DNA of 64,000 bases from Patescibacteria group bacterium. Its GTDB lineage: Bacteria > Patescibacteriota > Patescibacteriia > UBA1558 > GWA2-36-10. The position numbers and the translations under genes are program-made. Within the stretch, counting starts at the first letter, position 1, and the number at the start of each line of letters is the position of its first letter. Below, piece after piece: positions 54 to 58,000 of this stretch. The notes below the pieces were generated by a model. That model worked only from the letters and a program-made list of their open reading frames with translations, did not search any database and was not told the origin of the DNA. The DNA is taken from the NCBI GenBank assembly GCA_041662585.1, contig JBAZSG010000003.1, positions 33,011 to 97,010 on the forward strand, read 5' to 3'.

Positions 54-1022
54 ATGATAGATTTTGTTAATGTTAGTTACGGCCCTATAGCTGCTTATGG
101 TAATAAAGATTATTGGTATTCTTTGTTGAATATGCAGTATTTGACTGATAGTATAGCTAAAAATATACTTGAAGATGATAAATGGTTGGATAAGGTAAGG
201 AAAAAATCCTTGGATAACTTTGAAAAGTTTAAGGAAAATTTTAATAGACAACTGAAGTTAGTAGAATCAAAACCAATAGATTTTTTAATTTGGGTTATAA
301 AAAATTATCCTGATTATTTTGCTAGTCTAGGTTTATATAATGGACTTTGGCGTTATATGGAATATAATAATAACAGCCAGAGAAATATGGCTGATGGCAG
401 TACTGACAAAATAGCTGATGAAAGAAGTCAAGTGGCGATACTTTATCCTTTGGTAGAAAAGTATCTCAAGAGTGCTATTAAATCGATGCTTTCGAGTCTT
501 AATTTGCCGAAAATAGATTATTTGTTATTAACTAGAGAAGAATTGCAAGATGTTTTGGAAAATAATATGGTAAATAAAGAATTACAAATCCTGATAAAGA
601 AAAGAAGTAAAGGTTATGTATATTTATACAAAGATAATATAGAGACCATTATTTTTGATAAAGATGTTTTGAATAAAGTCAAAGATTATGCTATTCCTAA
701 AGTAAAAAATTCAGACATTGTTTACGGCATAGCAGCCTATGGGGGGCTAGTTAAGGGTAAAGTAGTTTTGGATTTAAAAAACTTTGCATCTTATAAAGAG
801 CCAATTTATATTACAGCCATGACTCATCCAGATGAGGTTCCTTGGCTTAAAAAATGTTTAGCTATAGTAACTGATGAAGGAGGAGTATTGTCTCATGTAG
901 CAGTGATTGCCAGGGAATTTAAAATACCTGCGCTTATGGGTACTAAAGTAGCTACCCAAATATTTAAAGATGGCGATATGGTGGAGGTGGATGCTAATAA
1001 AGGGATTGTGAAGAAAATATGA
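54..1022 (+). CDS. PEP-utilizing-enzyme mobile (phosphohistidine swivel) domain protein, paralog 1; 5' end uncertain (frame open to window start)
   Basis: C-terminus ...IVTDEGGVLSHVAVIAREFKIPALMGTKVATQIFKDGDMVEVDANKGIVKKI matches the PEP-utilizers swivel domain (GGxTSHAAIxAREL in PpsA/PPDK/EI). The N-terminal part is unique. The stop overlaps the next start (ATGA). Confidence 0.6.
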   Translation: MIDFVNVSYGPIAAYGNKDYWYSLLNMQYLTDSIAKNILEDDKWLDKVRKKSLDNFEKFKENFNRQLKLVESKPIDFLIWVIKNYPDYFASLGLYNGLWRYMEYNNNSQRNMADGSTDKIADERSQVAILYPLVEKYLKSAIKSMLSSLNLPKIDYLLLTREELQDVLENNMVNKELQILIKKRSKGYVYLYKDNIETIIFDKDVLNKVKDYAIPKVKNSDIVYGIAAYGGLVKGKVVLDLKNFASYKEPIYITAMTHPDEVPWLKKCLAIVTDEGGVLSHVAVIAREFKIPALMGTKVATQIFKDGDMVEVDANKGIVKKI

Positions 1023-2035
1023 ATTTAGATTTTGATAAATCATTAAATTATGAAAGACACCAACGTGATTATTCTATTGTAGTCACTACCCTTGTGTTTA
1101 GAGGTTTGTACAATCAAAATGCCAAGTTTTTTGGTGTAGCTCCTACGGCTTGTTATCTAATAATTAAAAACGATGTTTTATATCATTATATGTCTAAGTA
1201 TGATGGTAAAAGGCGCATGGAAAATTGGCTTCAAAACAATAATATCAAATCTTTTAAAGATCAAGAAAAAATATATTCTGAAAAATTAGAAAAATTTAAT
1301 AAATTTTATAATCAGCAGCCAGATGATTTATTTTTAGCTTTAAAATTGAGCCACGATTTTTTTGTAGATTTCACAGAAATAATTTTATTGGGTTATGAAC
1401 TGCCTTTGTATATGAAAGATATTGCACCTAAAGAAATTATAGATTTTGCTTTTGCTATTAGGCATAAATACGAAGATGTTCACAAAAGAAATGTTGATAT
1501 AACACTAAAGATTTTAAATAAATTGGAAGAAAAGTATAAAATCGAGAAAAATACATTGTCTTATCTAACTATAGATGAGCTAGAAAAATTTTTAAAAACA
1601 GCCGAGTTGCCAGATATTGAAGATAGAAGAAAATATGTATTAATAAAATATGATGGTGATTATTCTTTTTTCTACGACCAAAAAACTTGGAATATTTTAA
1701 ACCCAAAAATAGCTAAAGAATTTGTCCGTGGTAGGACAGCTTTTAAGGGAAAAGTACAAGGCATAGTAAAAGTAATAAATAAGATAAAAGAGGCTGACGA
1801 TTTGAAAGAAGGAGAGATTTTAATTACCAGTATGACAGACCCTCGCTATGTACCAGCTATGAAAAGAGCCGGAGCTATTGTCACTGATGAAGGAGGTATT
1901 ACTTGTCATGCGGCTATAGTTTCTCGTGAGTTAAAAATTCCGTGTGTTATCGGCACAAAAGTTGCTACGGAGATTTTTAAAAATGGCGATATGGTCGAAG
2001 TCGATGCTAATAGTGGTATAGTTAGAAAAATATGA
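1019..2035 (+). CDS. PEP-utilizing-enzyme mobile domain protein, paralog 2 (unique N-terminal domain)
   Basis: C-terminus ...AIVTDEGGITCHAAIVSRELKIPCVIGTKVATEIFKNGDMVEVDANSGIVRKI. There is a 4-nt overlap with both neighbouring genes. Confidence 0.65.
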   Translation: MNLDFDKSLNYERHQRDYSIVVTTLVFRGLYNQNAKFFGVAPTACYLIIKNDVLYHYMSKYDGKRRMENWLQNNNIKSFKDQEKIYSEKLEKFNKFYNQQPDDLFLALKLSHDFFVDFTEIILLGYELPLYMKDIAPKEIIDFAFAIRHKYEDVHKRNVDITLKILNKLEEKYKIEKNTLSYLTIDELEKFLKTAELPDIEDRRKYVLIKYDGDYSFFYDQKTWNILNPKIAKEFVRGRTAFKGKVQGIVKVINKIKEADDLKEGEILITSMTDPRYVPAMKRAGAIVTDEGGITCHAAIVSRELKIPCVIGTKVATEIFKNGDMVEVDANSGIVRKI

Positions 2036-3438
2036 ATATTATGAAAGTAGATAAATATCAAAGAGTATTTGAAAATCAAAATGTAAGGCCATATTATTCT
2101 ATACCTCACAATCAAGGTTTTGGCGAGCCATTAAAAGAATTGGTTAACTATGAATATGATAGAGTAATATACGTGATTTCAGAATCATACGGTAATAAAG
2201 CATATATTCACGAAGATGAAATAAACAAAGGAGCTAATTATTTTTCTAAAATTTGGAAAGATTCAAAAAAGACTAAGGAGATTTTAGCCGAGATAAGAAA
2301 ACGTTTTTTAAATGCCAAAAAACTAGAATTCAATTTATGGAAAATAGATATAATAAATATCAAGGAAGAAAAATTGGTAAGTAAATTAAATAAAATACAA
2401 GACATGTTACTTAATATTTTAAGTGCTCATGTCATTAGCCAGCCACCTCATATAAAAAGTTTGGAAAAGGAGTTAAATAATAGCCTTGAAAAAATAAAAG
2501 ATGTTGATCAATCATTATTAATTAGATCTTTTACACATTTTGAGGGTGTTTTGCCACACGCAGAGGAAGAAAAAGAAATAGAAAAATATAATAAATTATG
2601 GTCAAATATAGACAGCGATAAGAGAGAGACTATATTAGAAGAGTTGGTAAAAAAATATGGTTGGATAAATGCTGTAGAGGGAGATAAACCATATTCTAAA
2701 GAACATTATAAAAATAAAATAGAAACATATAAAAAGTCTTCTGATATAGAATTGTTAGATTTGAGTAAGTATTCTGTACCGCAAGCAGTAAAAATTGGAA
2801 AACTAATTGGTGAATTAGGCTTTTTACGTTTTTGGTCTAGATTTCATATGTTGGCTCTACATTATCAAATGAAACGTATAGTAAAAGAATTAGCCATCAA
2901 AAAAGAAAATAATTTAATAAATTTAATGACCGTAAAAGAAATTACTAATTATATAAATGGAGATGAAATAAATCTTAAAGAGATAGAAAAAAGAAAGAAA
3001 GGTTATGTGGTTTATTTAAAAAATGGAAAAAGTCATTTAGTGTCTGGCCAAGAAACTGATAAATATATTAAACTTACCAAGGAAGATGAATTGTCTCAAA
3101 AACAGATATCTGGATTTGTAGCATGCAGAGGTTTAATAAAAGCTAAAGCTAGAATTATTGATTTTAATTCAAAAGATTATAATAAAGAAGTATCTCAGTT
3201 TAAAAAAGGAGAAATTCTAGTCACAGGTATGACCCGTCCACAAATTGTACATCTATGTAATAAAGCCTCAGCTATTGTAACTGATGAAGGAGGTATAACA
3301 AGCCATGCAGCGGTAGTCAGTAGAGAATTAAATATTCCTTGTGTAATAGGTACTAAAGATGCCACTAAAATTTTTAAAACGGGAGATTTTTTAGAAGTAG
3401 ATGCCAATAAAGGAATAATAACAAAGATTATTAATTAA
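2032..3438 (+). CDS. PEP-utilizing-enzyme mobile domain protein, paralog 3 (unique 380-aa N-terminal region)
   Basis: C-terminus ...AIVTDEGGITSHAAVVSRELNIPCVIGTKDATKIFKTGDFLEVDANKGIITKI. Confidence 0.65.
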   Translation: MNIMKVDKYQRVFENQNVRPYYSIPHNQGFGEPLKELVNYEYDRVIYVISESYGNKAYIHEDEINKGANYFSKIWKDSKKTKEILAEIRKRFLNAKKLEFNLWKIDIINIKEEKLVSKLNKIQDMLLNILSAHVISQPPHIKSLEKELNNSLEKIKDVDQSLLIRSFTHFEGVLPHAEEEKEIEKYNKLWSNIDSDKRETILEELVKKYGWINAVEGDKPYSKEHYKNKIETYKKSSDIELLDLSKYSVPQAVKIGKLIGELGFLRFWSRFHMLALHYQMKRIVKELAIKKENNLINLMTVKEITNYINGDEINLKEIEKRKKGYVVYLKNGKSHLVSGQETDKYIKLTKEDELSQKQISGFVACRGLIKAKARIIDFNSKDYNKEVSQFKKGEILVTGMTRPQIVHLCNKASAIVTDEGGITSHAAVVSRELNIPCVIGTKDATKIFKTGDFLEVDANKGIITKIIN

Positions 3439-6063: not shown

Positions 6064-6833
6064 ATGAATTTTGAAAATGTTAATGCTAATCTAGAAAAAG
6101 AAAGTAAAGGTGAAAATGTAATTGTTCATTCTGTTTTTATTCGTCATGGAGAAAAATTTCATGATATAAATAATCCAGAAACAGAACTTACTCCTAAAGG
6201 GAGAGAGGCGAGTCGTGAAATTGGAAAAAATAGGCCGGAAGTTGATGCTATAAAAGGCTATAGTAGTGATACTCAAAGAACCCAAACTATGATCCAAATA
6301 ATGAATTTACCAAGAAATTGCAAGGGATAAAAGAAGAGTTGCTAGGAAAAGGATATGATGATTTATCAGAGAATCAAAAAGAAGCCAGGTTAGATGAATA
6401 CAACTCTGTTATTACTGATTGTTATTTAGCTTTGGGTGATCAGAGACCAGATCCAAATACTTATTCCCCAGTAGAAACAGCCGCTACTATGGCCAAGATA
6501 TTGGATAATAATATTAGGATGGCCGATAGATTAAAATCTAATTCAGAAGTTGATTTGGTCAATGCCACACATGATTTTAATATAGTAGCTTTCTTAAAGG
6601 AAGTCTTGGTAAGAAAAATAGATGATAAAAAAGTAGTTGGTTTTGATTCTGTTAAGGAAATAGGAGGAAGTATGGAATTTAATGGTGGTTTTGAAGTTTT
6701 AATAAAGACAGATAATGATGGGCACAAAACTCTAAAAATATTATTTAGAGGAGAAGAATACGAAATAGATGAGACAAGATTAACAGAATTAGTACAAATA
6801 GCCAAAGATTTAAAAAAGCAAGATGAAAAATAA
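6064..6833 (+). pseudogene. histidine phosphatase superfamily paralog, interrupted by a frameshift (ORFs 6064..6330 and 6318..6833)
   Basis: ORF1 has VFIRHGEKFHDINNPETELTPKGREASRE (RHG motif). ORF2 (KEIGGSMEFNGGFEVLIKTDNDGHKTLKILFRGEEYE, VNATHDFN) aligns to the C-terminal two-thirds of 3447..4373. The frame switch lies around 6300-6330. Confidence 0.5.
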
Positions 6834-6850
6834 TATAATAATTTATATAT

Positions 6851-7147
6851 ATGCCAAAATTAAATATAAAACCTTCAAGCAAGGCTAAGCTTAAGATTAA
6901 AAGGCCTATTAAAACAGAATCTAAGTTAGAAAAACTTAATAAAATATTAGATAGAGTACGTCCAGCACTAGAGCGAGATGGAGGCAATCTAGAGCTGATC
7001 AATTTTGATGAAAAAAATGGTTTAGTTGAAATTACATTTCAAGGTGCTTGCGCTCATTGTTCTTTGGCTGATGTTACATTAAAACATTTGATAGAATCTG
7101 AAATTAGAGCTCAAATGCCAGAAATAAAAGAAGTAAGATCTATATGA
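6851..7147 (+). CDS. NifU-like (Nfu-type) Fe-S cluster domain protein
   Basis: VRPALERDGGNLELINFDEKNGLVEITFQGACAHCSLADVTLKHLIESEI matches the NifU C-terminal / Nfu domain pattern (G-x-C-x-x-C ... TLK). The stop overlaps the start of the next gene. Confidence 0.6.
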   Translation: MPKLNIKPSSKAKLKIKRPIKTESKLEKLNKILDRVRPALERDGGNLELINFDEKNGLVEITFQGACAHCSLADVTLKHLIESEIRAQMPEIKEVRSI

Positions 7148-8502
7148 GTAGAAAGTATGATTTTATGTCAAAACCTTGGGTATATTCTATTTCTAGAAAT
7201 ATACATTTTTGGCACGATGAATTATCTATTAAATATAGTTATGCAGGTTGTAAGAAATTAAAATTACCTTCTTTTCATTATGCTCGGATTAATAATACAG
7301 GTCATGGAGATTTTTTTTATTTAGAAACAGGAGAGTATGGTAAGGATAAATTTAATAAAGCTTTAGAAGATAATTTTAAAGATAAAAAATATATTAATTT
7401 TTTAGAAAATTATTATATCAGTAATGGAGAAAAATTGGTTGAACATTCTAAAAAATTAAAATTAGATTATAAAGAATTTAAAGATTATTTTACAGAATAT
7501 GGAATAATGTGTCCTACTTTAGATGGTACTAACACAGGCAGTAAAATTATTACAGATTATTTATTAAATAAGTTATCTAGCTATCCTGATGCTACTGACA
7601 TTATTTCTTATTACTCTCAAATGCCTAAAAAAAGTCCCATGCAGAAGATGGATGAGGAGTTAGCTAAAGGCATTAAAAATAAAGTAGATAAAAAGAAATT
7701 AGCTAAAACATTATATAATAAGTATTGTTGGATACCAATTAGTTTTATTGGAGATCCTTGGGATTTAAAATATTTTGAAGATAAGATTAAAAAATATAGT
7801 CCAAATAAAGAACATAAATTATCTAAACCAAAAGTTCAAATAGCAGATAATTTAATGTATTACTTAAAATTATTAGGTAAAATAGCTTATTTAAATGAAT
7901 ATAGAAAATCTGTTTTTACTAGAGCCAATTATTATATTAGGCCGTTATTAGAAAAAATTGCTCAGGAGTATAATTTGGGTACTTGGAAAGAAATAAATCT
8001 TTTAGCTAGTAATGAGATATTAGATTTATTAGATGGTAAAGATGATTATCAAAAAAAATTGATAAAAGAGAGAAGAAAGGACTGGTTAATGTATGCGGTT
8101 GGTCGAGAGGGTATTGATTATGTCCATGGAAAGTTGGTAAAAGATTTTAGAAATAAATTTATGCCAAAAGCGAATGGTTTAAATTATGTTTCAGGTACAA
8201 TTGCCAATAAAGGTAAGGTCAGAGGTGTAGTAAAAATTATATATGAACCAAAAGATTTTAATAAGTTTAAGAAAGGGGATATATTAGTAGCTAAGATGAC
8301 CTCTATTGATTTTATACCAATAATGAAGCGTGCGGCAGCTTTTGTTACTAACGAAGGGGGTTTAGCATGTCATGCAGCTATAGTTTCTCGTGAATTAAAC
8401 ATCCCCTGTATAATAGGAGCTAAGATAGCTACCGAAGTTTTTAAAGACGGTGACAGAGTAGAAGTAGATGCTAATAGAGGTATAGTTAAGAAGATAAAAT
8501 AA
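7144..8502 (+). CDS. PEP-utilizing-enzyme mobile domain protein, paralog 4 (unique N-terminal domain)
   Basis: C-terminus ...AAFVTNEGGLACHAAIVSRELNIPCIIGAKIATEVFKDGDRVEVDANRGIVKKIK. Confidence 0.65.
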   Translation: MSRKYDFMSKPWVYSISRNIHFWHDELSIKYSYAGCKKLKLPSFHYARINNTGHGDFFYLETGEYGKDKFNKALEDNFKDKKYINFLENYYISNGEKLVEHSKKLKLDYKEFKDYFTEYGIMCPTLDGTNTGSKIITDYLLNKLSSYPDATDIISYYSQMPKKSPMQKMDEELAKGIKNKVDKKKLAKTLYNKYCWIPISFIGDPWDLKYFEDKIKKYSPNKEHKLSKPKVQIADNLMYYLKLLGKIAYLNEYRKSVFTRANYYIRPLLEKIAQEYNLGTWKEINLLASNEILDLLDGKDDYQKKLIKERRKDWLMYAVGREGIDYVHGKLVKDFRNKFMPKANGLNYVSGTIANKGKVRGVVKIIYEPKDFNKFKKGDILVAKMTSIDFIPIMKRAAAFVTNEGGLACHAAIVSRELNIPCIIGAKIATEVFKDGDRVEVDANRGIVKKIK

Positions 8503-8520
8503 TTTTAGACAAACGGAAAA

Positions 8521-8573
8521 GCGGCGACACGTTGTGTGTGTCGCCGCTTTGTTGTTAGTCCGTTGAGCGGACT
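8521..8573. terminator. pair of GC-rich hairpins (gcggcgacac..gtgtcgccgc and agtccgttgagcggact) acting as a bidirectional terminator
   Basis: Perfect inverted repeats, followed by a T-rich run on either strand. Confidence 0.55.
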
Positions 8574-9147
8574 ACTCTTCAATCCAGACGGCATCGATAC
8601 TGCCGTCGTCGTATAGGCGGAAGCGAATCGCTTCCATGGCATCGAGGCTGTGAGCATCGGTCATGCCGAGACACTTGGCCAGCATGGGGATGGTGGGATC
8701 GTGGAAGATCCCGACACCGTGCTGACCCGAATCCATCAGGTCGAACATCTGCTTGAGAGCATTGCGGGCTCCAATGTTGAAGTCAACGAGTACCTGCCGG
8801 TCGATGTTTACGAGCACGGCCTCCATATTGGAGAGGCCACCCTTGATGTCGGCCCGGACATGGTCGGTGATGATAGTGGCGAACAGTTCGCTACTACCGA
8901 GACCGTGGATCGGGTCATGCATCTTCACATGAGTGAAGGCCTGATTGGCTGTCATCATGGCGATGGCGGTTTCGCAGGTGCGGGCGAGAGGCCCCCAGAA
9001 GAGATGGTGAATATTCATGTTGCCTTCGTCGTAGCGCTCCGAGCCTATTTCGTAGGCGTAGGTGGCTCCGTCATAGGAGACATGATTGCCACCGGTATCT
9101 TTGTGCGTGTGGCGATACAAGTCTACGGTTTTGGTTATCTGGGCCAT
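8572..9147 (-). CDS. GC-rich histidine phosphatase superfamily-like protein (start placed at MAQITK..)
   Basis: Strong GC3 codon periodicity. The SD AGGGAGG lies 6 nt upstream of the ATG at 9147. DLYRHTHKD and later WGPLARTCETA resemble the RHG and S-x-L-x-RA-x-QTA motifs of the PGM/SixA fold. The ORF track's longer start at 9213 has no RBS. Confidence 0.45.
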   Translation of the reverse strand: MAQITKTVDLYRHTHKDTGGNHVSYDGATYAYEIGSERYDEGNMNIHHLFWGPLARTCETAIAMMTANQAFTHVKMHDPIHGLGSSELFATIITDHVRADIKGGLSNMEAVLVNIDRQVLVDFNIGARNALKQMFDLMDSGQHGVGIFHDPTIPMLAKCLGMTDAHSLDAMEAIRFRLYDDGSIDAVWIEE

Positions 9148-9222
9148 TTTGGGCCTCCCTGTTTTGGGTTTTGTATGGTACGCCCCTAAATATAGGGGAT
9201 TCTTGTATTTCAAGAATATATT

Positions 9223-9251
9223 AGTATAGCATATTTTTTATTTAATGTCAA
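9223..9251 (-). promoter_or_regulatory. sigma70-like promoter TTGACA-N17-(TGc)TATACT for 8572..9147
   Basis: The reverse complement reads ttgacattaaataaaaaatatgctatact, with an extended -10 TGn. Confidence 0.5.
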
Positions 9252-9340: not shown

Positions 9341-11149
9341 ATGTTGGATAAAATTATAAATTCAAAAACTCGTCTAGCTATCTTGTCTTTATTTTTTAAA
9401 AATCAAGACAAAGAATTTTATGCTGGAGAGATTATCAAACAAAGCAATATGGATGCAGCTAATGTCCATAAAGAATTAAAAAATTTGGTAGCTGGTAAAT
9501 TTGTATTGCAAGAAGATAAATCAAGTAGAAAATATTTTTCTTTAAATAAAGATAATATTTTTTATAATGGTTTGGATAAGGTATTTAGTCAATATAAAGT
9601 ATCCATATCTGGAGATGTGTGGTTTTCTTTGGAATCAATGCCAAATTATTATCCTATGGTGGTGGCTTTTACTTGGAATGTAAAACGAGCCAATGATTTT
9701 TTACAAAGCCGTGGCTATAAAAATAAATTTACCAAACTACTCACTACCTATAACAATAATATCAATGATTTGCTTTTGATTAAAAAAGAATTTGACGACT
9801 TATCACAAGAAACTTTAGATAAGATTAATTCTGATCCAGATTGGGGGCATAGATATGTTGATGATTTATCACAAGCCATCCCTAAGTTGGTTAAAGCCAC
9901 TAAAGATTTGGAAAAAGTAAATTTGGGCAAATTATCCAATGAAGAATTATATAATTTATATCAGGAGTATTATGATGCTTATGGACGTCTTCATAGATTT
10001 CACTGGGTACAAACCATCGCTGATTTTGGTGACAATTTGTTTTCTAAATATCTAATGAATTATTTGCGTCATAAGGTCAAAGATAGCCAATATTCTTTGG
10101 GAGAAGTCTTTTCTACTTTGACAACTCCGATAGAAGACGGTCAAGCCGCTAAAGAGTATCAAAATTTATTAGGTATCTTAAAAAATATAATAGCTGATGA
10201 AAATCTAAAACAATATTTTAAAGATACCGAAACTCGTATTATTTACAGAGATTTAAAAAATGTTAATAAGGTTGTTGATGAACAAATTTCTGAACATACT
10301 GGGCTCTATGGTTATCTTGGTTATGGTATGGCCGGCCCTGGTTGGGGTAAAGACTATTTTATTGATATTTTAGGATCTTTGGTCAGACAGAATACCAATC
10401 CTAGTGAATTATTGGATAATTTACAAAAAGACAAAATAAACATTGAAGCCAAACAGCAGAAATTTATTAAACAACTAGAGGTAGATGAAAAACATCAGCA
10501 ATTGTTTGAAGTAGCTAGAGGTTTGGTTTTTACCAAAGGTACTCGCAAGGAATCTATGTTTTACAGTTATAGTGTTATAGAAAATTTGTTTAGAGAAATT
10601 GGTCGCCGTTATTATTTATCGGTCAATCAGGTGAGATATTTTTATCCCCATGAATTTGAAGATTTATTGCTTCACAATAAATTTAGTGCGGCTAAACTAA
10701 ATGAGCGTTATAAATTTAGTTTGCAATATTCAGTAGGTGATTATCATCAAGATAAATTATTAGAAGGTGAAGAAGCTAGAAAATTTTTAGAAAATTTTAA
10801 TATTGTCAAAGAGGAAATCGTTGATATTAAAGTAATGGAAGGAGATTGTGCTTCTCCTGGTCGAGCTCGTGGTAGTGCAAAAATTATCAATATTCCCAAA
10901 GATATGAGTAAAATGGAACAAGGCGATGTGCTTATATCTATCGCCACTACTCCGGATTTAGTACCAGCTATTAAAAAGGCTAGTGCTATTGTCACTGACG
11001 TCGGAGGTATTACTTGTCATGCTGCCATTGTTTCTCGTGAATTGGGCATTCCTTGTGTTATTGGTACTAAAATCGCTACCAAAGCCTTAAAAGATGGTGA
11101 TGTAGTAGATGTAGATGCTACGCATGGTAAAGTTACGATTGTCCGGTAG
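9341..11149 (+). CDS. winged-helix (ArsR/MarR-like) DNA-binding domain fused to a PEP-utilizing-enzyme mobile domain, paralog 5
   Basis: N-terminus KTRLAILSLFFKNQDKEFYAGEIIKQSNMDAANVHKELKNLVAGKFV is a wHTH pattern. C-terminus ...ASAIVTDVGGITCHAAIVSRELGIPCVIGTKIATKALKDGDVVDVDATHGKVTIVR. Confidence 0.6.
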   Translation: MLDKIINSKTRLAILSLFFKNQDKEFYAGEIIKQSNMDAANVHKELKNLVAGKFVLQEDKSSRKYFSLNKDNIFYNGLDKVFSQYKVSISGDVWFSLESMPNYYPMVVAFTWNVKRANDFLQSRGYKNKFTKLLTTYNNNINDLLLIKKEFDDLSQETLDKINSDPDWGHRYVDDLSQAIPKLVKATKDLEKVNLGKLSNEELYNLYQEYYDAYGRLHRFHWVQTIADFGDNLFSKYLMNYLRHKVKDSQYSLGEVFSTLTTPIEDGQAAKEYQNLLGILKNIIADENLKQYFKDTETRIIYRDLKNVNKVVDEQISEHTGLYGYLGYGMAGPGWGKDYFIDILGSLVRQNTNPSELLDNLQKDKINIEAKQQKFIKQLEVDEKHQQLFEVARGLVFTKGTRKESMFYSYSVIENLFREIGRRYYLSVNQVRYFYPHEFEDLLLHNKFSAAKLNERYKFSLQYSVGDYHQDKLLEGEEARKFLENFNIVKEEIVDIKVMEGDCASPGRARGSAKIINIPKDMSKMEQGDVLISIATTPDLVPAIKKASAIVTDVGGITCHAAIVSRELGIPCVIGTKIATKALKDGDVVDVDATHGKVTIVR

Positions 11150-11215: not shown

Positions 11216-12154
11216 ATGGAATTAGTCAGAGATTTTAAAAAAATAGATAAAAATCATGTCGCTTTGGCTGGAGGTAAGGGGGCATCTTTAGGAGAAATGA
11301 CCAAAGCGGGTATTCCTGTACCACCTGGTTTTGTGGTTTTATCTGGAGCTTTTGACAGATTTTTAGAAGAAACAGATTTGAATGTAGAAATAGAAGCTAT
11401 TTTAAAAACAGTTAAACATGAAGATGTTAATTCTGTGGAAAAGTCTTCTTTAAAAATAAGAGATTTAATTGCTGATGCTAAGATGCCAGAGGATATTGCC
11501 AAAGAAATTAAAGTATCTTTTAAAAAGCTTGATGCTAAATATGTAGCTGTGCGTTCTTCTGCTACAGCTGAGGATTCATCTATTGCATCTTGGGCCGGAG
11601 AATTGGAGTCATATCTTAATACCACAGATAAAGATTTGCTTGATAATGTCAAAAAATGTTGGTCATCACTTTTTACACCTCGGGCAATTTTTTATCGTTT
11701 TGAAAAAAAATTACATAACACTAAGGTATCTGTAGCTGTGGTAGTACAAGCAATGGTGCAGTCACAAGTGAGTGGTATTGTTTTTACTGTTCATCCAGTC
11801 ACAGAAGATCAGAAACAGATGATTATTGAAGCTGGTTGGGGATTGGGTGAAGCTATTGTTTCAGGTATGGTTACTCCCGATGCTTATGTTATAGATAAAA
11901 CAGATTTTTCTATTGTGGATATCAATATTTCAGATCAAGCCAAATACATTATCAAAACTAACAAAGGCAACAAATTTACAGATGTGCCTAGTGATAAACG
12001 TGAAGAGCAAAAATTGTCTGGTGCTCAGATTGTAGAGCTAGCCAAAATTTGTGTGGATATTGAAAAACACTACGGCTTTCCTTGTGATATAGAATGGGCT
12101 ATGGAAAAAAATAAATTTTATATTACCCAGTCCAGACCAATCACCACTTTATAA
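11216..12154 (+). CDS. free-standing PEP synthase / pyruvate phosphate dikinase N-terminal ATP-grasp (PPDK_N) domain protein
   Basis: VALAGGKGASLGEMTKAGIPVPPGFVVLSGAF matches the PpsA N-terminus (GGKGANLGEL..GxxVPxGF). Only 312 aa, with no swivel and no PEP-binding domain. Confidence 0.7.
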   Translation: MELVRDFKKIDKNHVALAGGKGASLGEMTKAGIPVPPGFVVLSGAFDRFLEETDLNVEIEAILKTVKHEDVNSVEKSSLKIRDLIADAKMPEDIAKEIKVSFKKLDAKYVAVRSSATAEDSSIASWAGELESYLNTTDKDLLDNVKKCWSSLFTPRAIFYRFEKKLHNTKVSVAVVVQAMVQSQVSGIVFTVHPVTEDQKQMIIEAGWGLGEAIVSGMVTPDAYVIDKTDFSIVDINISDQAKYIIKTNKGNKFTDVPSDKREEQKLSGAQIVELAKICVDIEKHYGFPCDIEWAMEKNKFYITQSRPITTL

Positions 12155-12171
12155 ATTTTATATAAAAGAAA

Positions 12172-12198
12172 AGAGCCCAGTTGTTTAGACAGGGCTCT
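12172..12198. terminator. bidirectional rho-independent terminator hairpin (agagccc..gggctct)
   Basis: The inverted repeat is flanked by an A-run upstream and a T-run downstream. Confidence 0.55.
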
Positions 12199-12221
12199 TT
12201 TAAATTCGCGGTGTTGGCGAA

Positions 12222-12719
12222 TTATACCTCGGTTTCGCCGAGTTGGTCGAGAATCGACCAGCCGATTTCACCGTTTTCGTCGATGGTGATCTCGATGACT
12301 GAGCCGCTTTTGGCGGCTTCTATACCCAGAGACTTGGCAAATGGTCTGCCGGTGCATAGCACAGCCCCATCGGGCAGAGACTCCAGGAAAGCAGGAATGG
12401 CGGGCGCCATATCAGCGATGCCGGTGTAGGCATCATAGGCACAGTGGTTGCCGTCGGCAAAGACGATGGTCGGCTGACCATCGATCATGTCGAGCGACGT
12501 GGCGTCACCCAGAAGCAGAGTTGAGCGGGTCATGGTCAGACCCAGTGTGGCAGCAACGTGCCGATGTCGGCGACCAGTGCCGCATATTACAGCCGCAGGA
12601 TTTTCAGGGAGGAGTCCCTTGAGGGACTCAATCTGATTTACTCCTTTGAGAGTCATCAGGGGGTCAGCCCCATCGCTCTTGTCGCCGTGCAATACGGCGA
12701 AAAATTGATTGACTTTCAC
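12222..12719 (-). CDS. GC-rich SixA-like (phosphohistidine phosphatase-type) histidine phosphatase family protein, GTG start
   Basis: GC3-rich codons. FFAVLHGDKSDGADPLMTLKG ... VICGTGRRHRHVAATLGL has the same layout as SixA (IMRHGDA...RPLT.NG ... VLVSPFLRAEQT), but with L in place of the catalytic R. Confidence 0.4.
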   Translation of the reverse strand: MKVNQFFAVLHGDKSDGADPLMTLKGVNQIESLKGLLPENPAAVICGTGRRHRHVAATLGLTMTRSTLLLGDATSLDMIDGQPTIVFADGNHCAYDAYTGIADMAPAIPAFLESLPDGAVLCTGRPFAKSLGIEAAKSGSVIEITIDENGEIGWSILDQLGETEV

Positions 12720-12766
12720 TTTTTAGCCTTTCTTTTGGGTTGTAGGGTACTTGATTTTAATATAAT

Positions 12767-12795
12767 ATTATAGCATATTTTTATACTTTTGTCAA
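12767..12795 (-). promoter_or_regulatory. sigma70-like promoter TTGACA-N17-(TGc)TATAAT for 12222..12719
   Basis: The reverse complement reads ttgacaaaagtataaaaatatgctataat. Confidence 0.5.
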
Positions 12796-12845
12796 TGATA
12801 GTATTTTTTTAAAAATAATTATTTTGAGGTGGTGTTTTATTGCTA

Positions 12846-12874
12846 TTGACAATAATCACTATATATGCTAATAT
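12846..12874 (+). promoter_or_regulatory. consensus sigma70 promoter TTGACA-N17-TAATAT
   Basis: ttgacaataatcactatatatgctaatat. It drives the GC-rich transcript that ends at the 13286-13319 terminator. Confidence 0.5.
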
Positions 12875-13027
12875 ACAAAATACTTTGATTTTGTAGTGTC
12901 TATCGCTTGTATAAGCAAGGACACTCAAGTCAGGGTAGTATCATTACAATCAAAAAAGGTTGCGACCAAAAGTTGGTTGCAACCAAACAAACACTGAAGT
13001 TGGCCAAGCAGGCCAAGGAGGTTCTTG

Positions 13028-13120
13028 ATGCGTACCTACAAGAAGCATCACTCGCCCCCGTCCGTGGTTTTTACGAATATTATCACCAAAAAGGCGAAGA
13101 AGACCGCCACGACGAGCTGA
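13028..13120 (+). CDS. small ORF MRTYKKHHSPPSVVFTNIITKKAKKTATTS with a perfect SD
   Basis: AAGGAGG lies 6 nt upstream of the ATG. The track's alternative 12907..13167 ORF starts with TTG inside the hairpins and lacks an RBS. Confidence 0.3.
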   Translation: MRTYKKHHSPPSVVFTNIITKKAKKTATTS

Positions 13121-13285
13121 CCGAGATCCGGCCGGCGGTCGTGATTCTGATGAGTATCAGAAAATAAGCTCAATCAGACAACGACCTGCCGAACGAACGA
13201 ACATCAAAAAACTGAATTCGCCGGCGCAAGCCGTACAAAAATGACGGCGATTTGCCGACGATTCAGCAGTGCTCTTCTGTGTATG

Positions 13286-13319
13286 CCGCCCCACCTAGCT
13301 AGGTCGGGGCGGTTTTTTA
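13286..13319 (+). terminator. strong rho-independent terminator (ccgccccacctag/ctaggtcggggcgg + T7)
   Basis: A 12-13-bp GC stem followed directly by TTTTTTATT. Confidence 0.7.
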
Positions 13320-13394
13320 TTGACATTTTTTCTTAAAATTGTTCAAATATTGGGTAGATTTTTTATAAATAATGTGTTAAAATAAGTACATAAT

Positions 13395-13754
13395 ATGTCT
13401 ATAATTCGCACCAGCAAAGTATTATATAAAGATAAATTAGCTTTTTGGCTAATTAATTTTTCTTTTTTGTCTATATTAGCCACTTGGTTTTTATTTTTTA
13501 TTAAAAGAATCAAATATGATCCTTTGGCTGTACTACATTACAATATTTACTCGGGGATTGATATTTTGGGTGCTTGGTACATACTTTTTATTATTCCGGT
13601 TTTAGTTTTAATTGTATCATTTTTAGATTTCTTTTTAGCGGTATTACTTTGGACTAAAGTAAGGGTCATGAGTTATTTTTTATTGCTTACTATTTTACTT
13701 ATAAATGTTTTTATGTTTTTATTTTTATATAATATATTAAATTACAATTTATAA
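13395..13754 (+). CDS. small integral membrane protein (3 predicted TM segments), unknown function
   Basis: Highly hydrophobic 119-aa ORF immediately upstream of mraY. Confidence 0.4.
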   Translation: MSIIRTSKVLYKDKLAFWLINFSFLSILATWFLFFIKRIKYDPLAVLHYNIYSGIDILGAWYILFIIPVLVLIVSFLDFFLAVLLWTKVRVMSYFLLLTILLINVFMFLFLYNILNYNL

Positions 13755-53904: not shown

Positions 53905-53933
53905 TTGACAAAATATAAAATAAGGTGTATAAT
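53905..53933 (+). promoter_or_regulatory. consensus promoter TTGACA-N17-TATAAT, about 170 nt upstream of the GC-rich gene at 54108
   Basis: cttgacaaaatataaaataaggtgtataat. Confidence 0.5.
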
Positions 53934-54107
53934 AATACATTAAATAAAATAGTTTTGTGCTTGCCCATTACTTTATATCCTATTTTATATCGTTAGTGTG
54001 TAAACATAAAACCTTTTTATAGGTTTGTACCATAACAACAAATCGAAGAAAAAAGATCAAAGAATAAGCTAAAGTTTCTAACCACACTTTTAGGAAGGGG
54101 TACGAAA

Positions 54108-54974
54108 ATGCGTACACGTAATTTCAGTTTTTTGGCGATGGCTTTCGTAGCCATCATGCTCACTGTCGTTTCTACTCAGGCTAAGGTGGTCCTCACGCCG
54201 ACCACAGTTGACTCTGTCGGAGTCGAAAGAGTCGGAGACAGCACCTTGCTCAAGGTGCCGGCGACAATAGAGGTCTACGATTCCTTATTTGTTGACAGCG
54301 TCAACACTTATCGAATCAATGATTTGGTTGAAGCTATTAAGCAAGTCGATTCGACTTTCGATGGTAGCGAAGCCGCCGTCAAGGCTCGCATCACACAGCG
54401 CGAAGCTCGGGCCAAGGCCGAGGCCGACAGTCTGGCAGCTGCTGAAGCCGCCGAATTGAAGAAGCTTCACAAGCAGTGGAGCAAAGAAGTGAAACCGCTG
54501 TCGTATGACAGCGTCTGGGTATGGGCTTTGATTCCTGATAACGATACCGCTTATATGAAAGCGGAATGGTTGGCCGAGCGTTATAGCTTGACACTGAGTC
54601 AAGCTGACATCTACAACCTTGATTCGAAAGAGATCATTGAAGAGCTCAAAGCTCAACTTCGGCAGCGACAGAAAATCAATGCCACAGTCGATACTCGCAT
54701 CGCCAAATCAATCGCTGGACTGCAAAGTCAGCTCAACGCTTTGAGCGATACCCTGTCTCAGACCCGGGCCGGCGTGGAGCTCGCATACAAGTTGGCGGAT
54801 GAAGCCAATTGCAAGGCCGAGGCCAATACGGCCGAAATATCAAGGCTCTGGAGCGTTTGGGAAGCGCTCGAAGTACAGGACAGTGTTTCCACTGTCCCTA
54901 ACCCCGAGACCACCACACCTCCCCCCGCTCCCGACTCTTCCAATGCATCTTTGGTCAAAAACGACGGCAAATAA
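54108..54974 (+). CDS. GC-rich secreted protein (signal peptide, central coiled coil, Pro/Thr-rich C-terminus), unknown function
   Basis: MRTRNFSFLAMAFVAIMLTVVSTQA signal peptide. Codon GC3 bias and GC content are sharply different from the flanks. SD GGAAGGGG. Confidence 0.5.
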   Translation: MRTRNFSFLAMAFVAIMLTVVSTQAKVVLTPTTVDSVGVERVGDSTLLKVPATIEVYDSLFVDSVNTYRINDLVEAIKQVDSTFDGSEAAVKARITQREARAKAEADSLAAAEAAELKKLHKQWSKEVKPLSYDSVWVWALIPDNDTAYMKAEWLAERYSLTLSQADIYNLDSKEIIEELKAQLRQRQKINATVDTRIAKSIAGLQSQLNALSDTLSQTRAGVELAYKLADEANCKAEANTAEISRLWSVWEALEVQDSVSTVPNPETTTPPPAPDSSNASLVKNDGK

Positions 54975-54997
54975 ACGCCATCAAGCTTTCTTCGATT

Positions 54998-55036
54998 GGA
55001 GGCCTGCTATCCATTAGCGGGCCTCCTTTCTTTTAC
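54998..55036 (+). terminator. GC-rich hairpin terminator (ggaggcc...ggcctcc + TTTCTTTT)
   Basis: Inverted repeat followed by a T-run. Convergent with the end of the giant gene. Confidence 0.55.
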
Positions 55037-55091
55037 AAAAAAACAGAGCTGATAAATATAGCCCTATTTTTTTAAACTATTTTTTAGAAAT

Positions 55092-58000
55092 TTATTTGGC
55101 TAATTGTTTATCTATTTTGGATATAATATTAGCATTTTCTTCAACAGCTTTGTTTATTTTATCAAGCGAAAAATTTGAATTGTTTGGAGGACCCTCTTTT
55201 AAGATTGTTTGCATTTTTGCCAATTCTGTTTTTAAATTCTGTAATTCAGTATGGTCCATCTGATCAAATTCACTGGTGGAAACTAATTCTTTATTGTAAA
55301 AGCCTTTGTACAATTCATTCATCGTAATGCTATTAATTTCAGCTACAGGAGTTTCTTCGTCAGGACTTAAGGCATAATCTTCAATATTATCAAGTTGGTC
55401 GTCAGTTGACATTTCATTGGTACTTGGTGGAAGCTGATCTATTTCTTCACCTTGAGCTTCTAGTTGTTTTACTAAGTCAGTGATTCTCTCCAATCTTTCT
55501 TGCTCAGTGCCTTCATTACTAATATTATATTTTTCAAACAAATCAGCTCTTTCAGTCAATACATTGTTGGCTAGACCAATGGCTATTTCTTCATAATCTG
55601 GCCGGCTAGTGTCAATATCAGGATTCCAAGATTTTAATAGTTCCATAGCTGTTTCTGGCTTAATATTGGAAACATTTTCTATTTCAGGATTTATTGTAGT
55701 TTCTGGCATAGCTTTTTCTACAACAGCCGCTTCTTCATCGTTTGCTACTGTTTCAGCTTTTGAAGAGTTTTTTTCCATGTTGTTTACTTTGATTTCAGCT
55801 ACATCCATATCATGGCGTAATTTTTCTATAGTATTTTTTGTAGCCAATTCTTTGATAGCTTCCTCTATAGTTATGGATTTGTCATGAACATCACCTTTAT
55901 TGATAGCCTCTTGAATAAATTCTTGCATGTGACTTCTATGGTGTCTTTCTAGTAGCTGGTTATTTTGTTCAGAATAACCTTCTATTTTTTCATCTAGTAA
56001 ATCAGAGACACTTTCTTTTTTAAGAAAATCCCACTCAGCTTTACCATAGTCATCAACAAAACCAAGCTTGGTTAGAGTAGTTTCTAGCTCGGTATTAATA
56101 TCATATTCTGGAGTAGCCAATGCCGGAATATTTTCTATTATTTTTTGTGATTCAAAATTGGCTAGCTGTGTATTTAATCGTTCTGTCATCTCAGCCTTAG
56201 TATCTTCTATTAGTGATAAAAGTTTTTCAGCTTTTACTTCAGAAACTCTGTCAATCAATTCTTCACCAGCTTCTTTATTGTTCAAAATAATTGGATTCTC
56301 TAGATTTGTGTCACCTACTCTGACTACCTCATTGTCTTTAATCAGGATTTCTTCATTATCAATCACAAAAGTGCCAGAATCTTCATCTTTAAATGCTAGG
56401 TCAGTAGCTAGTTCACCGAGCTCAGTATTATTTAAGGTAGCTTGAAACAATCTATTTTCAGCGGCATCTATTTGTTGTTGATCTAGCTTTATCTGTTCGG
56501 CAGCTATATTTTCTGGTTTGAGCATGTCACCCCAAGTTGCATCTTTGATATTGTCAATATAGGCTACTGCCCCTGAATTTTCAATATTTTCTGTAGTAAT
56601 AGTTTCTTCAGCATGAGCGACTAAAACGCGGACAATATTGTCTTGAAAACCATCATAATCATTTACCACTACCTTACCATTTTCAACAGAAACATATTTT
56701 TGAAAATCTTCGGCACTAATACCAGCGATATCATGACCTTCAGACAATTTTGTCATGTTGGCTCCAATATTTAATATTTGAGCTGCTTCTACATTGGTGA
56801 TTTCGTCGCCAAAATGCATACTATCAATACCTACTCGATAAAATACTTGCTCTAGATGTTTTGGGGCACCATCTTTAGCAAGCTCCAAAGATAAATTACG
56901 TTTTATGGATTCTCCAGTTTTGGTTTCTGGTTCATCTTTTTCAATTTCTTTAAATCCAGTATGCTTTATAGATGCGTGTTCAATGGAAAATTTTTGTTCA
57001 TCGTTTATGAGACCAGATTGGTACAATTTTTCAAGCAAAGCAGTAGCTTCTCCAGCTTTGGCTCCGTGTATTTGCTCAGCAATTTTATTTAATTCTTCGC
57101 TTGTAATATCTCCATCAAATGAGTTGATACCAAACTCTTTTTCAAGCTCCAATCTGTCTTGAACTTCTATGACAGTTTTGATATCAATTTGACTGTTTTC
57201 AATGGCATTTTTAGCTATTTCTTCATTACTAAGGTTTAATTCTTGACCAACATGCGTTGCTATTGCTTGTTTGTATTGTTCCAAGGTCAAAGTACCATCA
57301 TCTAATAAATGATTTAAAGCGTGACGAGCATTGATTGCTTCTTGAGATTTTGGGTCATTGTCTAATTCACAAACCACCTTATCCAAATCTTCAATCGTTA
57401 CTCCTTTTTCAAAGATATTTATTATTTTTTCAACTTCTGGATTGATTGTTTCTTCGGTTTTTTGTTCATTAGTGGTATCTGGCTGAGTCGTTTGCGTAGT
57501 ATCTATATGTTCAAGATTATTCCAATCTGGAGGTGAAGATTTTTGATTTTCTAATTTATAAAATAGCTTACTTTCTTCATTTGCAGTTTCGTGTATTGGA
57601 TTTTTAATTTCAGGAGATTGTGTTGTAGTATCTGACTGATTAGTTTCAGTATTTTGTGTTGTATCTGAAGTAATTATTTTTTCTTCAAGTTCTTCTTTGG
57701 TTTCTGAAACTGGTTTTGGTATTTCTACATGAGAAGTATTAGTAGTTGCTGTGTCTTGATTTTCGTCAGCGTCAGTAACAATATTTTTAATATCTTCTAC
57801 TATTGTTTCTGTACGAGCTGCAGCAGCTCCTGCATTTAAAGTAACCCTATTAAGTACATTATCAAGACCGGCATTTATATCATAGCTTCCTCCATTCATA
57901 GTTGTGCTACCAAAACTAACCAATTCACTACCAATGGCACCAGCCAAAGCTCCTTTTGCTCCTTCGTAGCCAGCTTTAGCAAAAACTTTGAGTTTTTCTT

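Follow-up and report, generated by a model that had tools for sequence, protein, structure and literature searches.

Phosphatases of the SixA type (branch 1 of the histidine phosphatase superfamily; PDB 1UJC) carry the arginine of an RHG motif and a second catalytic histidine, and SixA removes phosphate from the phospho-histidine of HPt and NPr. Phosphatases of the PhoE, CobC, RosC and TTHB049 type have the full R-H-G...R...H set together with a cap subdomain. At the level of genome organization, Hendrix and colleagues reportedly described phage morons as autonomous units of promoter, open reading frame (ORF) and terminator that have a deviant composition and lie between conserved genes. Here we describe a locus that bears on both types of system, in a Patescibacteria group bacterium of the Candidate Phyla Radiation (CPR). 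The stretch analyzed, hereafter the window, comprises 64,000 nt (GenBank assembly GCA_041662585.1, contig JBAZSG010000003.1, positions 33,011 to 97,010), and the locus is the second of its three blocks of high G+C content (GC). This block, island 2, holds a minus-strand gene for a 165-aa SixA-like protein and, next to it, a plus-strand transcription unit (Table 1). The reading we favor, to which we give a probability of about one in two, is that island 2 is a native, long-resident and self-contained cassette whose GC-rich and hairpin-rich state is actively maintained, and not the product of recent transfer.

The mean GC of the window is 32.2% and its gene content is typical of a CPR bacterium, with mraY, murD, ftsW, murG and murC as well as a block of ribosomal protein genes; the nearest public relatives are metagenome-assembled genomes (MAGs) of Candidatus Komeilibacteria. 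Three blocks deviate from this composition (8475–9216, 12157–13345 and 54067–55068, islands 1 to 3). In windows of 100 nt, island 2 has 50–62% GC over 12200–12700 and 46–57% over 12950–13300, and the AT-rich spacer between the gene and the plus-strand unit (12700–12900) has 18–24%. The island-2 coding sequence (CDS) has a GC of 0.56, distributed over the three codon positions (GC1/GC2/GC3) as 0.63/0.45/0.61. Among the 62 ORFs of at least 90 aa that served as the comparison set, GC3 exceeds 0.34 in only three, which are the genes of island 1 (0.70), island 2 (0.61) and island 3 (0.58); the other 59, ribosomal protein genes among them, range from 0.15 to 0.34. The sharp contrast between block and flanks reported in a first-pass annotation of this DNA, made from the sequence alone, is therefore far beyond chance. 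Islands 1 to 3 also share a codon usage unlike that of the rest of the genome, a point that annotation had proposed to check, with correlations of log relative synonymous codon usage (RSCU) of r = 0.48–0.61 among the islands and −0.13 to −0.41 between the islands and the background. Ordinary translational selection for C-ending codons can be ruled out as the cause, because the ribosomal protein genes of the window have a GC3 of only 0.15–0.23 (RSCU correlation with the background, r = 0.91).

We compared the locus with loci fetched from related assemblies in NCBI, JGI, ENA and Logan (numbered L001 and so on). Orthologues of 47–82% amino acid identity lie between PPDK_N and the genes for a 119-aa membrane protein and mraY in L001–L005, L011, L013 and L032, where the GC3 of the gene is 0.54–0.62 and that of its neighbors 0.16–0.30. 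More distant members occur beside PEP-utilizers genes in L006–L028 and in a Doudnabacteria locus (L031), with a GC3 of 0.79–0.85 against 0.38–0.50 in the neighboring genes. In every locus tested the GC of the gene exceeded that of its flanks, and the closest orthologue is listed in 34 blocks of the collection. L032 (JGI Ga0104751_1005953; NCBI protein RJP61760.1) is labeled “Ignavibacteriales bacterium” and shows the exact gene order of the window; its codon usage is AT-rich, and in all likelihood it is a Komeilibacteria-like contig that was binned wrongly.

These comparisons argue against recent transfer, which the first-pass annotation had proposed with the proviso that homologues of the same GC in close relatives would mark the genes as native: orthologues of similarly high GC occupy the same syntenic position in every related assembly fetched. 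Of the usual marks of a genomic island, the gene thus has the deviant composition (GC 0.56 and GC3 0.61 against 0.32 and ~0.2), but it is not patchy among relatives, being syntenic and equally GC-rich in each of them, the 64 kb contain no tRNA (ARAGORN), no integrase or transposase gene was found at the locus, and the only flanking repeats are the direct repeats of the plus-strand unit. Nor does it reside in a prophage or phage, the flanks being PPDK-like genes and the mraY-murD-ftsW-murG-murC cluster. Four-fold degenerate sites differ by 36–56% between orthologues (41–68% for neighboring genes, which is near saturation); synonymous turnover has therefore been heavy, yet the C-rich bias lasts, with C at 0.43–0.56 of four-fold sites, alike in all lineages. 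The proteins have also diverged fast. Between L032 and the window, mraY is 89% identical, whereas identity falls to 52% for the island-2 protein and 42% for the island-1 protein; despite this divergence the two L032 genes have a GC3 of 0.57 and 0.65, respectively. Because the GC3 bias persists through both four-fold turnover and fast protein divergence, the composition of island 2 is a maintained trait of fast-evolving genes, not the decaying relic of a recent import.

The island-2 gene has the layout of an independent transcription unit. The minus-strand ORF with a GTG start that had been proposed is present, at 165 aa (the L010 orthologue has ATG at the matching codon), and 12160–13340 contains no other ORF longer than 93 aa; the neighbors are PPDK_N, the 119-aa membrane protein and mraY. 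The AT-rich hub with two divergent promoters was also recovered. Promoter-like matches across the region are no more frequent than expected by chance (8 observed, 6.1 ± 2.4 expected), so it is conservation in relatives that carries weight here: both hub promoters are conserved, and that of the island-2 gene is near-invariant over five relatives. At the other end, the bidirectional hairpin said to flank the block forms in the folding of either strand (plus, z = −4.2; minus, z = −4.8), with arms of 13 nt (12169–12181 and 12189–12201) that are 92% complementary. Being G+C-rich, bordered by an A-run and a T-run and placed between convergent genes, it has the features of a bidirectional intrinsic terminator, and in L010 it is retained with several stem positions changed on both arms and the pairing intact. 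The hairpin over the stop codon is kept in all six orthologues examined, with 100% of cells paired and two pairs changed on both sides. The GC-rich tract begins a few codons past the start codon and ends at the terminator, and the promoter and 5′ untranslated region (5′UTR) have 18–24% GC. With its own promoter and intrinsic terminator around a single ORF, island 2 would qualify, as judged from its sequence, as a moron-like cassette. We propose that a near-consensus extended −10 promoter of its own drives the phosphatase gene, opposite in strand to its neighbors, and that the transcript ends at the bidirectional terminator.

The coding sequences of the islands are unusually rich in secondary structure. 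Counting perfect hairpins (stem of at least 6 bp, loop of 3–8 nt) against a null of synonymous-codon shuffles, we found 6 in island 2 where 1.33 were expected (reached by 0.3% of shuffles), 5 in island 1 (expected 0.8) and 10 in island 3 (expected 1.75), the strongest excess of the three; for the latter two, none of 300 shuffles reached the observed number. Expressed as z against such shuffles, the excess in islands 1 to 3 is about −3 to −5, with controls at about 0 to −1.5. Perfect hairpins are also enriched in most orthologues. The folding of the island-2 CDS gave z = −5.2 against 160 codon shuffles, and among 17 other GC-rich cassette CDSs (orthologues and other cassettes) z lay between −1.7 and −4.5 in 14 and was −1.05, −0.7 and +0.65 in the remaining three; in seven ordinary genes z was between 0 and −1.2. 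A local 25-codon shuffle, in which only ~10% of bases change, leaves the excess in place except in island 1 (z = −1.0). In the consensus structure of six orthologues, 16 pairs are changed on both sides, against 6.7 ± 1.9 in column shuffles and 2–7 in slid controls. One hairpin is kept through a double change, from TGGTCGA..TCGACCA to TGTTCGA..TCGAACA, at the cost of two residue replacements (W to C and D to E). As the likeliest cause we favor selection on the nucleic acid itself for monocistronic transcripts that are densely structured, resistant to nucleases and strongly expressed; the proteins under it would be fast-evolving ones with little constraint on their sequence. The GC-richness comprises C-ending codons together with GC-shifted first and second positions. 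It is common to islands 1 and 3 and to further cassettes in relatives, and is accompanied by the surplus of short G+C-rich stem-loops, by hairpins at the 5′ terminus and 3′ end, and by a promoter and leader module held in common.

The 165-aa protein has no Pfam match at E ≤ 0.1, no NCBIfam match at E ≤ 1 and no significant match among PDB sequences or in PADLOC. An AlphaFold model built from seven orthologues (predicted local distance difference test score, pLDDT, 85.5) has the phosphoglycerate mutase-like alpha/beta fold expected of a branch-1 histidine phosphatase, and a Foldseek search with this model returned only the histidine phosphatase superfamily (TTHB049, Rv3214, RosC and PFKFB2, E ~1e-7). 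A profile search recovered ~290 representative family proteins, all of ~160 aa; those with an organism name come only from Komeili-, Morani- and Doudnabacteria, where every one is labeled hypothetical. On this sequence evidence the family is unannotated and so far found only in CPR bacteria. Only 4 of 69 family members match the Pfam His_Phos_1 or NCBIfam SixA profiles, and weakly (best E = 1e-3). The family motifs are V-[TL]-H-G-x-K, G-T-G-R-R-H and C-x-G-R-P. The histidine at the nucleophile position (H11) and the adjoining glycine are each found in 60 of the 69, the second conserved arginine of branch 1 (R51, in G-T-G-R-R-H) in 68, and R125, in C-x-G-R-P, in 55. The residue before the histidine, which is the arginine of RHG in SixA, is leucine in the clade of the window and threonine in 50 of the 69, and in none of them is it arginine. 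The second catalytic histidine of SixA is likewise replaced: the corresponding segment is C-x-G-R-P and has no conserved histidine, a segment that we take to be equivalent to that of SixA H108 from a manual alignment to the SixA sequence. The designation “SixA-like” consequently holds for fold and size but not for sequence-family membership, given the absence of Pfam and NCBIfam matches and the replacement of two canonical catalytic residues. Compared with the PhoE, CobC, RosC and TTHB049 type, the family is shorter and its active site is rewired.

Whereas the partners of SixA are HPt and NPr, the neighbors of the island-2 gene are split proteins resembling pyruvate phosphate dikinase (PPDK) and phosphoenolpyruvate (PEP) synthase. 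Rifampin phosphotransferase and PEP synthase/PPDK share with these neighbors the ATP-grasp domain (PPDK_N) and the swivel phospho-histidine domain (PEP-utilizers); unlike those enzymes, which unite three domains in one protein, the neighbors divide them between one ATP-grasp protein and five or six swivel paralogues, and, again unlike PEP synthase/PPDK, no PEP/pyruvate-binding domain was detected in them. The window has a single PPDK_N protein beside five paralogues, in each of which PEP-utilizers is the only domain recognized, at the C terminus after an unannotated N-terminal region. PPDK_N is adjacent to the phosphatase gene or within ~2 kb of it in L001, L005, L009, L010, L018, L021 and L032. 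More broadly, family members from 82% down to ~30% identity adjoin PEP-utilizers and/or PPDK_N in nearly every locus (tblastn and gene calls), and in the Doudnabacteria locus the family gene lies, on the opposite strand, amid six tandem PEP-utilizers paralogues. By association, this supports a functional link between the phosphatase and its PPDK/PEP-utilizers neighbors. By analogy with SixA, the phosphatase might remove phosphate from the phospho-histidine of the swivel domain, or from the phosphorylated products of the neighboring enzymes.

Island 2 is one of a wider set of similarly built cassettes. In the 64 kb, TTGACA-N16-18-TA[TA]A[AC]T has only three matches, which are the promoters of islands 1 to 3, and GTACC[AC]TA likewise has only three, all in the 5′UTRs of these islands. 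In relatives, a GTAC-type motif, an A/C-rich tract and a Shine-Dalgarno sequence precede other GC-rich cassettes as well, encoding a 161/167-aa family, a 220/224-aa His_Phos-like family and a creatininase-family gene. A two-hairpin leader is common to the island-1 orthologues, the 220/224 cassettes and the island-2 orthologues of the L006/L015 lineage, in the order extended −10 promoter, first hairpin, second hairpin, GTAC-type motif, A/C-rich tract and Shine-Dalgarno sequence. Its stem sequences vary by lineage and both hairpins still form; it is not in Rfam, and an nhmmer profile of it found no instances beyond its own input sequences. The leaders of ompA, ermC and aprE are 5′-terminal stem-loops that stabilize mRNA; the plus-strand unit and the island-1-type leader likewise have hairpins a few nucleotides past the predicted start, and strong 3′ hairpins, but here, unlike in those leaders, the whole coding body of the cassettes is also packed with short G+C-rich hairpins. 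All protein-coding GC-rich cassettes are opposite in strand to the flanking genes of ordinary GC; the exception is the plus-strand unit. The 161/167 cassette occurs at different positions in L010 and L005, and such cassettes therefore move. Like phage morons, the islands are monocistronic, with a sigma-70-type promoter and an intrinsic terminator, and lie between conserved genes with a deviant GC, and the plus-strand unit and the 161/167 and 220/224 cassettes are also variably present; unlike morons, the islands lie in a chromosomal cell-wall (mraY/murD) neighborhood, islands 1 and 2 are syntenic across genera and their composition is maintained.

These observations could be extended into a broader picture, which taken as a whole we consider possible rather than probable. 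CPR genomes, across classes, would hold an undescribed class of autonomous “armoured” cassettes, monocistronic and opposite in strand to the flanking genes, with near-consensus extended −10 promoters, the leader described above and bodies of 50–65% GC, dense in short stem-loops, in genomes of 30–40% GC, whose composition is selected at the nucleic-acid level, for RNA longevity, for insulation from antisense read-through or replication conflicts, or for survival in DNA or RNA transfer, and does not reflect ancestry. The encoded proteins would evolve several times faster than their neighbors, and many of them would be divergent histidine phosphatases that partner arrays of split PPDK-like phosphotransfer proteins.

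The plus-strand unit behaves differently from the phosphatase gene. As the first-pass annotation had described, it is present at 12881–13319 with its own promoter, a very strong terminator and strong folding. The promoter, which is a 71% inverted copy of the island-2 promoter, is conserved in L009 and L030; these two loci keep the promoter and the first stem-loop, which forms in both with a different inner-stem sequence, and both contigs end there. The body of the unit (~12850–13285) is missing in L010, the closest relative, and in L001, and no homologue of the unit exists in L005 or L032. In L010 and L001 the 3′ arm of the terminator and the T-run remain, and the direct repeat found at both ends of the unit in the window is single-copy. 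This pattern is what one would expect either if the unit was inserted with duplication of its target or if recombination between the repeats removed it. We regard the unit as a recent accessory cassette, similar in kind to the islands and found in part of the lineage. The independent Logan contigs from related samples show the same break (L009 positions 1–60, L030 positions 1–20), which hints at strain variation or a repeat.

As for its product, we find it doubtful that the unit encodes an independent structured non-coding RNA (a small RNA with a regulatory or catalytic role) rather than being a small-protein cassette or a decaying gene. An RNA would fit with the folding relative to shuffles, both of the whole unit (z = −7.9) and of the compositionally uniform core (12985–13284, z = −5.3), with the independent promoter and terminator, with the retention of the 5′ stem-loop despite its altered inner stem, and with the lack of a conserved ORF. 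However, the antisense strand folds equally well (z = −6.7), and no match in Rfam 15 reached the gathering score in the whole window, or was credible even at E ≤ 10 over 12650–13450 (the best sub-threshold match of the unit scores 20.8 bits, where the gathering score is 60); nor did ARAGORN predict a tRNA or tmRNA in the window. Where the body of the unit is lacking (L010, L001, L005 and L032), nothing replaces it, and in the three lineages that have the unit two copies are truncated, with covariation assessable for the first hairpin only. The coding alternative draws on a clear three-base periodicity over 12941–13180 in the frame of the 86- and 64-aa ORFs (GC1 ~0.7, GC2 ~0.3, GC3 ~0.55) and on a consensus Shine-Dalgarno/ATG at 13015–13030. 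The candidate 64-aa ORF has a weakly island-like codon usage; the sole database match of the 86- and 64-aa ORFs is the ORF itself (P0158), and neither has a Pfam match. For the candidate 30-aa ORF, the predicted fold buries both the Shine-Dalgarno sequence and the AUG in stems.

The compositional step has other possible explanations. That it marks an assembly chimera or contamination, with GC-rich reads stitched into an AT-rich contig, was suggested by the sharpness of the step only, and is effectively refuted: the same junctions and gene order recur in independent NCBI MAG, JGI, ENA and Logan assemblies, the GC boundaries coincide with the start codon and terminator, the promoter and 5′UTR are conserved across relatives, and the GC skew has the same sign inside the island as around it. 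Alternatively, the islands could be foreign genes from a donor or mobile pool of ~55–65% GC, imported anciently or repeatedly and partly ameliorated, with a codon usage that reflects their common source. The sharp boundaries, the GC shift at all three codon positions and the codon usage shared by islands 1 to 3 would all follow from this, as would the mobility of cassettes (the two positions of the 161/167 cassette, and the unit as an indel with direct repeats) and the moron-like possession of a promoter and terminator by each. Parsimony singletons in island 2 also lean from GC to AT (17–22 against 2–7), although this test is composition-biased and control genes show a mirror-image skew. We nevertheless regard such an origin as unlikely. 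The island-2 gene has the same position and orientation, and near-invariant −35/−10 boxes, over the Komeilibacteria loci, and the gene is GC-rich in another CPR class; the named family members are all from CPR bacteria, the sole “Ignavibacteriales” MAG contig having the gene order of the window; the neighbors are saturated at four-fold sites (0.5–0.68), yet the GC3 of the island has not decayed toward 0.2; promoters and leaders are AT-rich and of native type; and integrase, tRNA and transposase are absent. The first-pass proposal of transferred DNA is not supported for the phosphatase gene, and it is the plus-strand unit alone that behaves like an insertion or deletion.

We consider it distinctly unlikely that a local, persistent GC-biased process without selection on RNA, such as biased gene conversion at a hotspot of recombination between strains or cassette copies, or targeted or transcription-linked AT-to-GC hypermutation, drives both the fast protein evolution and the GC, with hairpins arising as a by-product of template-switch repair. 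It would account for proteins that evolve faster than their neighbors (52% and 42% identity against 80–89% in L032), for the raised GC1 and GC2, and for an inverted-repeat signal that is strand-symmetric and borne by Watson-Crick pairs; the hairpin-preserving double change, in which two residues are altered, resembles a single template-switch event, and the L009 and L030 contigs both break within the variable unit. However, a tract bounded by start codon and terminator, with a promoter and 5′UTR left at low GC, is unlike a conversion tract or the footprint of a transcription-wide mutator, four-fold divergence is not above that of the neighbors (0.36–0.56 against 0.41–0.68), and the loci read have no adjacent retroelement, recombinase or deaminase gene. 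Several observations also weigh against the native, maintained cassette that we prefer. Both GC1 and GC2 are raised, as directional mutation pressure or foreign origin predicts. A DNA-level cause, for example template-switch perfecting of inverted repeats in G+C-rich DNA, may underlie the folding signal, because neither turning to the antisense strand nor restricting the pairs to Watson-Crick weakens this signal. The folding excess is not significant in L005 (−1.05), L009 (−1.7), the cassette L006_224 (+0.65) and L031 (−0.7), and the RNAalifold covariation term is neutral (+0.65), with only six fairly close sequences. Lacking both the RHG arginine and the second catalytic histidine, the protein might act as a binder rather than as an enzyme. 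Finally, the plus-strand unit is evidence that GC-rich cassettes can be gained or lost whole, which keeps a mobile or foreign origin of the class alive.

Compositional islands are routinely read as horizontal gene transfer or mis-assembly, especially in metagenome-assembled CPR genomes. GC deviation alone would mislead transfer scans and binning quality filters in this case, because island 2 is old and syntenic with a conserved composition, and a syntenic contig was binned as Ignavibacteriales. Literature searches for GC-rich islands in CPR bacteria, for histidine phosphatases together with PPDK_N/PEP-utilizers and for mRNA structure in GC3 outliers yielded no description of the pattern. If the GC-rich and hairpin-rich state is selected, it would be a natural example of nucleic-acid-level selection overriding mutation bias and amino acid choice, and would point to a specially expressed gene set in organisms with very few ribosomes. 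For two protein sets that are unannotated and specific to CPR bacteria, the locus also suggests a hypothesis that can be tested: rewired mini histidine phosphatases would reset or counteract a split ATP-grasp/swivel-histidine phosphotransfer array.

Table 1. Features of island 2, its neighbors and related cassettes. Coordinates refer to the window unless a locus is named.
Feature	Coordinates	Strand	Details
CDS of the 165-aa protein, minimal histidine-phosphatase fold (predicted; SixA-like)	12222–12719	−	GTG start; hairpin-dense
Promoter of the phosphatase gene	12795→12767	−	TTGACA-N17-TATAAT with TG extension; 12/12 matches
Short A/C-rich 5′UTR	12720–12760	−	GTACCCTA motif (12750–12743) and AAAGG Shine-Dalgarno sequence; motif search
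3′ hairpin over the stop codon	12203–12223	−	AATTCGC-N7-GCGAATT; perfect 7-bp stem
Bidirectional intrinsic terminator of PPDK_N gene (+) and island-2 gene (−), convergent	12169–12201	both	A-run and T-run flanks
Promoter of the plus-strand unit	12846–12874	+	TTGACA-N17-TAATAT with TG extension; 10/12 matches
5′-terminal stem-loop of the plus-strand transcript	12881–12937	+	−22 kcal/mol; z = −4.9
12-bp hairpin	12958–12984	+	GGUUGCGACCAA/UUGGUUGCAACC; −18.7 kcal/mol; z = −6.0
Candidate 64-aa ORF	12973–13167	+	TTG start; within 86-aa ORF 12907–13167; three-base periodicity
Alternative candidate, 30-aa basic ORF in a different frame	13015–13120	+	opened by AAGGAGG-N6-ATG (13015–13030)
Intrinsic terminator of the plus-strand unit	13285–13319	+	GC-rich stem of 11–12 bp (13285–13313) and U6; −23 kcal/mol
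Direct repeat, left copy (20 nt)	12828–12847	+	GGTGGTGTTTTATTGCTATT vs GGCGGTTTTTTATTGACATT; 80% identity, 480 nt apart
Direct repeat, right copy	13308–13327	+	overlaps TTGACA box upstream of 119-aa membrane protein/mraY operon
PPDK_N (ATP-grasp) gene	11216–12154	+	conserved neighbor, likely functional partner; Pfam E = 1e-100
PEP-utilizers (swivel phospho-His domain) protein, 602 aa	9341–11149	+	one of five paralogues; Pfam
Other PEP-utilizers paralogues	54–1022, 1019–2035, 2032–3438, 7144–8502		Pfam
Island 1, sister cassette	8572–9251	−	promoter 9251–9223; two-hairpin leader 9220–9154; 191-aa CDS 9147–8572
Island 3	53905–55030	+	consensus promoter 53905–53933; GTACCATA at 54027; CDS 54108–54974; then terminator
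Two-hairpin leader, window	9154–9220	−
Two-hairpin leader, L001	9501–9568
Two-hairpin leader, L005	10486–10551
Two-hairpin leader, L032	9495–9560, 10279–10343
Two-hairpin leader, L006	209–282, 888–955
Two-hairpin leader, L015	2433–2506, 3113–3181

Some further observations concern the neighborhood. The genes at 54–3438, 7144–8502, 9341–11149 and 11216–12154 look like an apparently unannotated split, multi-substrate phosphotransfer system. The 602-aa paralogue has an N-terminal winged-helix part that matches HTH_20, PADLOC PDC-M05A and Csa3-like models. The window also holds further histidine-phosphatase homologues of ordinary GC. One such gene, encoding a 280-aa His_Phos_1-like protein in L001 (10538–11380), matches the window in two pieces in different frames (6064–6285 and 6288–6830), which indicates a frameshift or pseudogene, or a sequencing error, at 6064–6833.

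GC-rich cassettes that are absent from the window were seen in relatives at L010 859–1362, L005 11286–11771, L006 963–1637, L032 10350–11012 and L009 3394–4185; the 161/167-aa family has an RHF/RSF motif, and GC3 in the 220/224-aa His_Phos-like family is as high as 0.92. With respect to replication, the cumulative GC skew of the window climbs to ~50 kb and then drops, and gene orientation flips at ~41.7–41.9 kb. Islands 1 and 2 (minus strand, rising skew) and island 3 (plus strand, falling skew) thus seem to be lagging-strand genes, oriented head-on to replication, and the sense strands of all three have more C than G.

The island-3 protein (288 aa) has a hydrophobic N-terminal segment, probably a signal peptide, followed by an Ala/Glu/Lys-rich coiled-coil-like region and a Thr/Pro-rich tail, and its cassette adjoins, opposite in strand, the gene for a giant protein of 2049 aa (55092–61241). 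A ~50-nt hairpin periodicity seen by eye in island 3 was not reproduced by local folding across cassettes. The 191-aa protein of island 1 has the motifs RH[ST], RTxET and FHDP; its single-sequence AlphaFold2 model (pLDDT 34) is too low in confidence for a fold call. For islands 1 and 2 as possible paralogues, neither BLASTP nor hhalign gave a significant match (E = 0.1), though their motifs align in register. At the 3′ end of island 1 (8518–8550) there is a perfect 13-bp hairpin, AAAGCGGCGACAC...GTGTCGCCGCTTT, followed by a second hairpin of 7 bp (8556–8574); the pair gives z = −6.1 and −5.8 on the two strands and is arranged as at the 3′ end of island 2.

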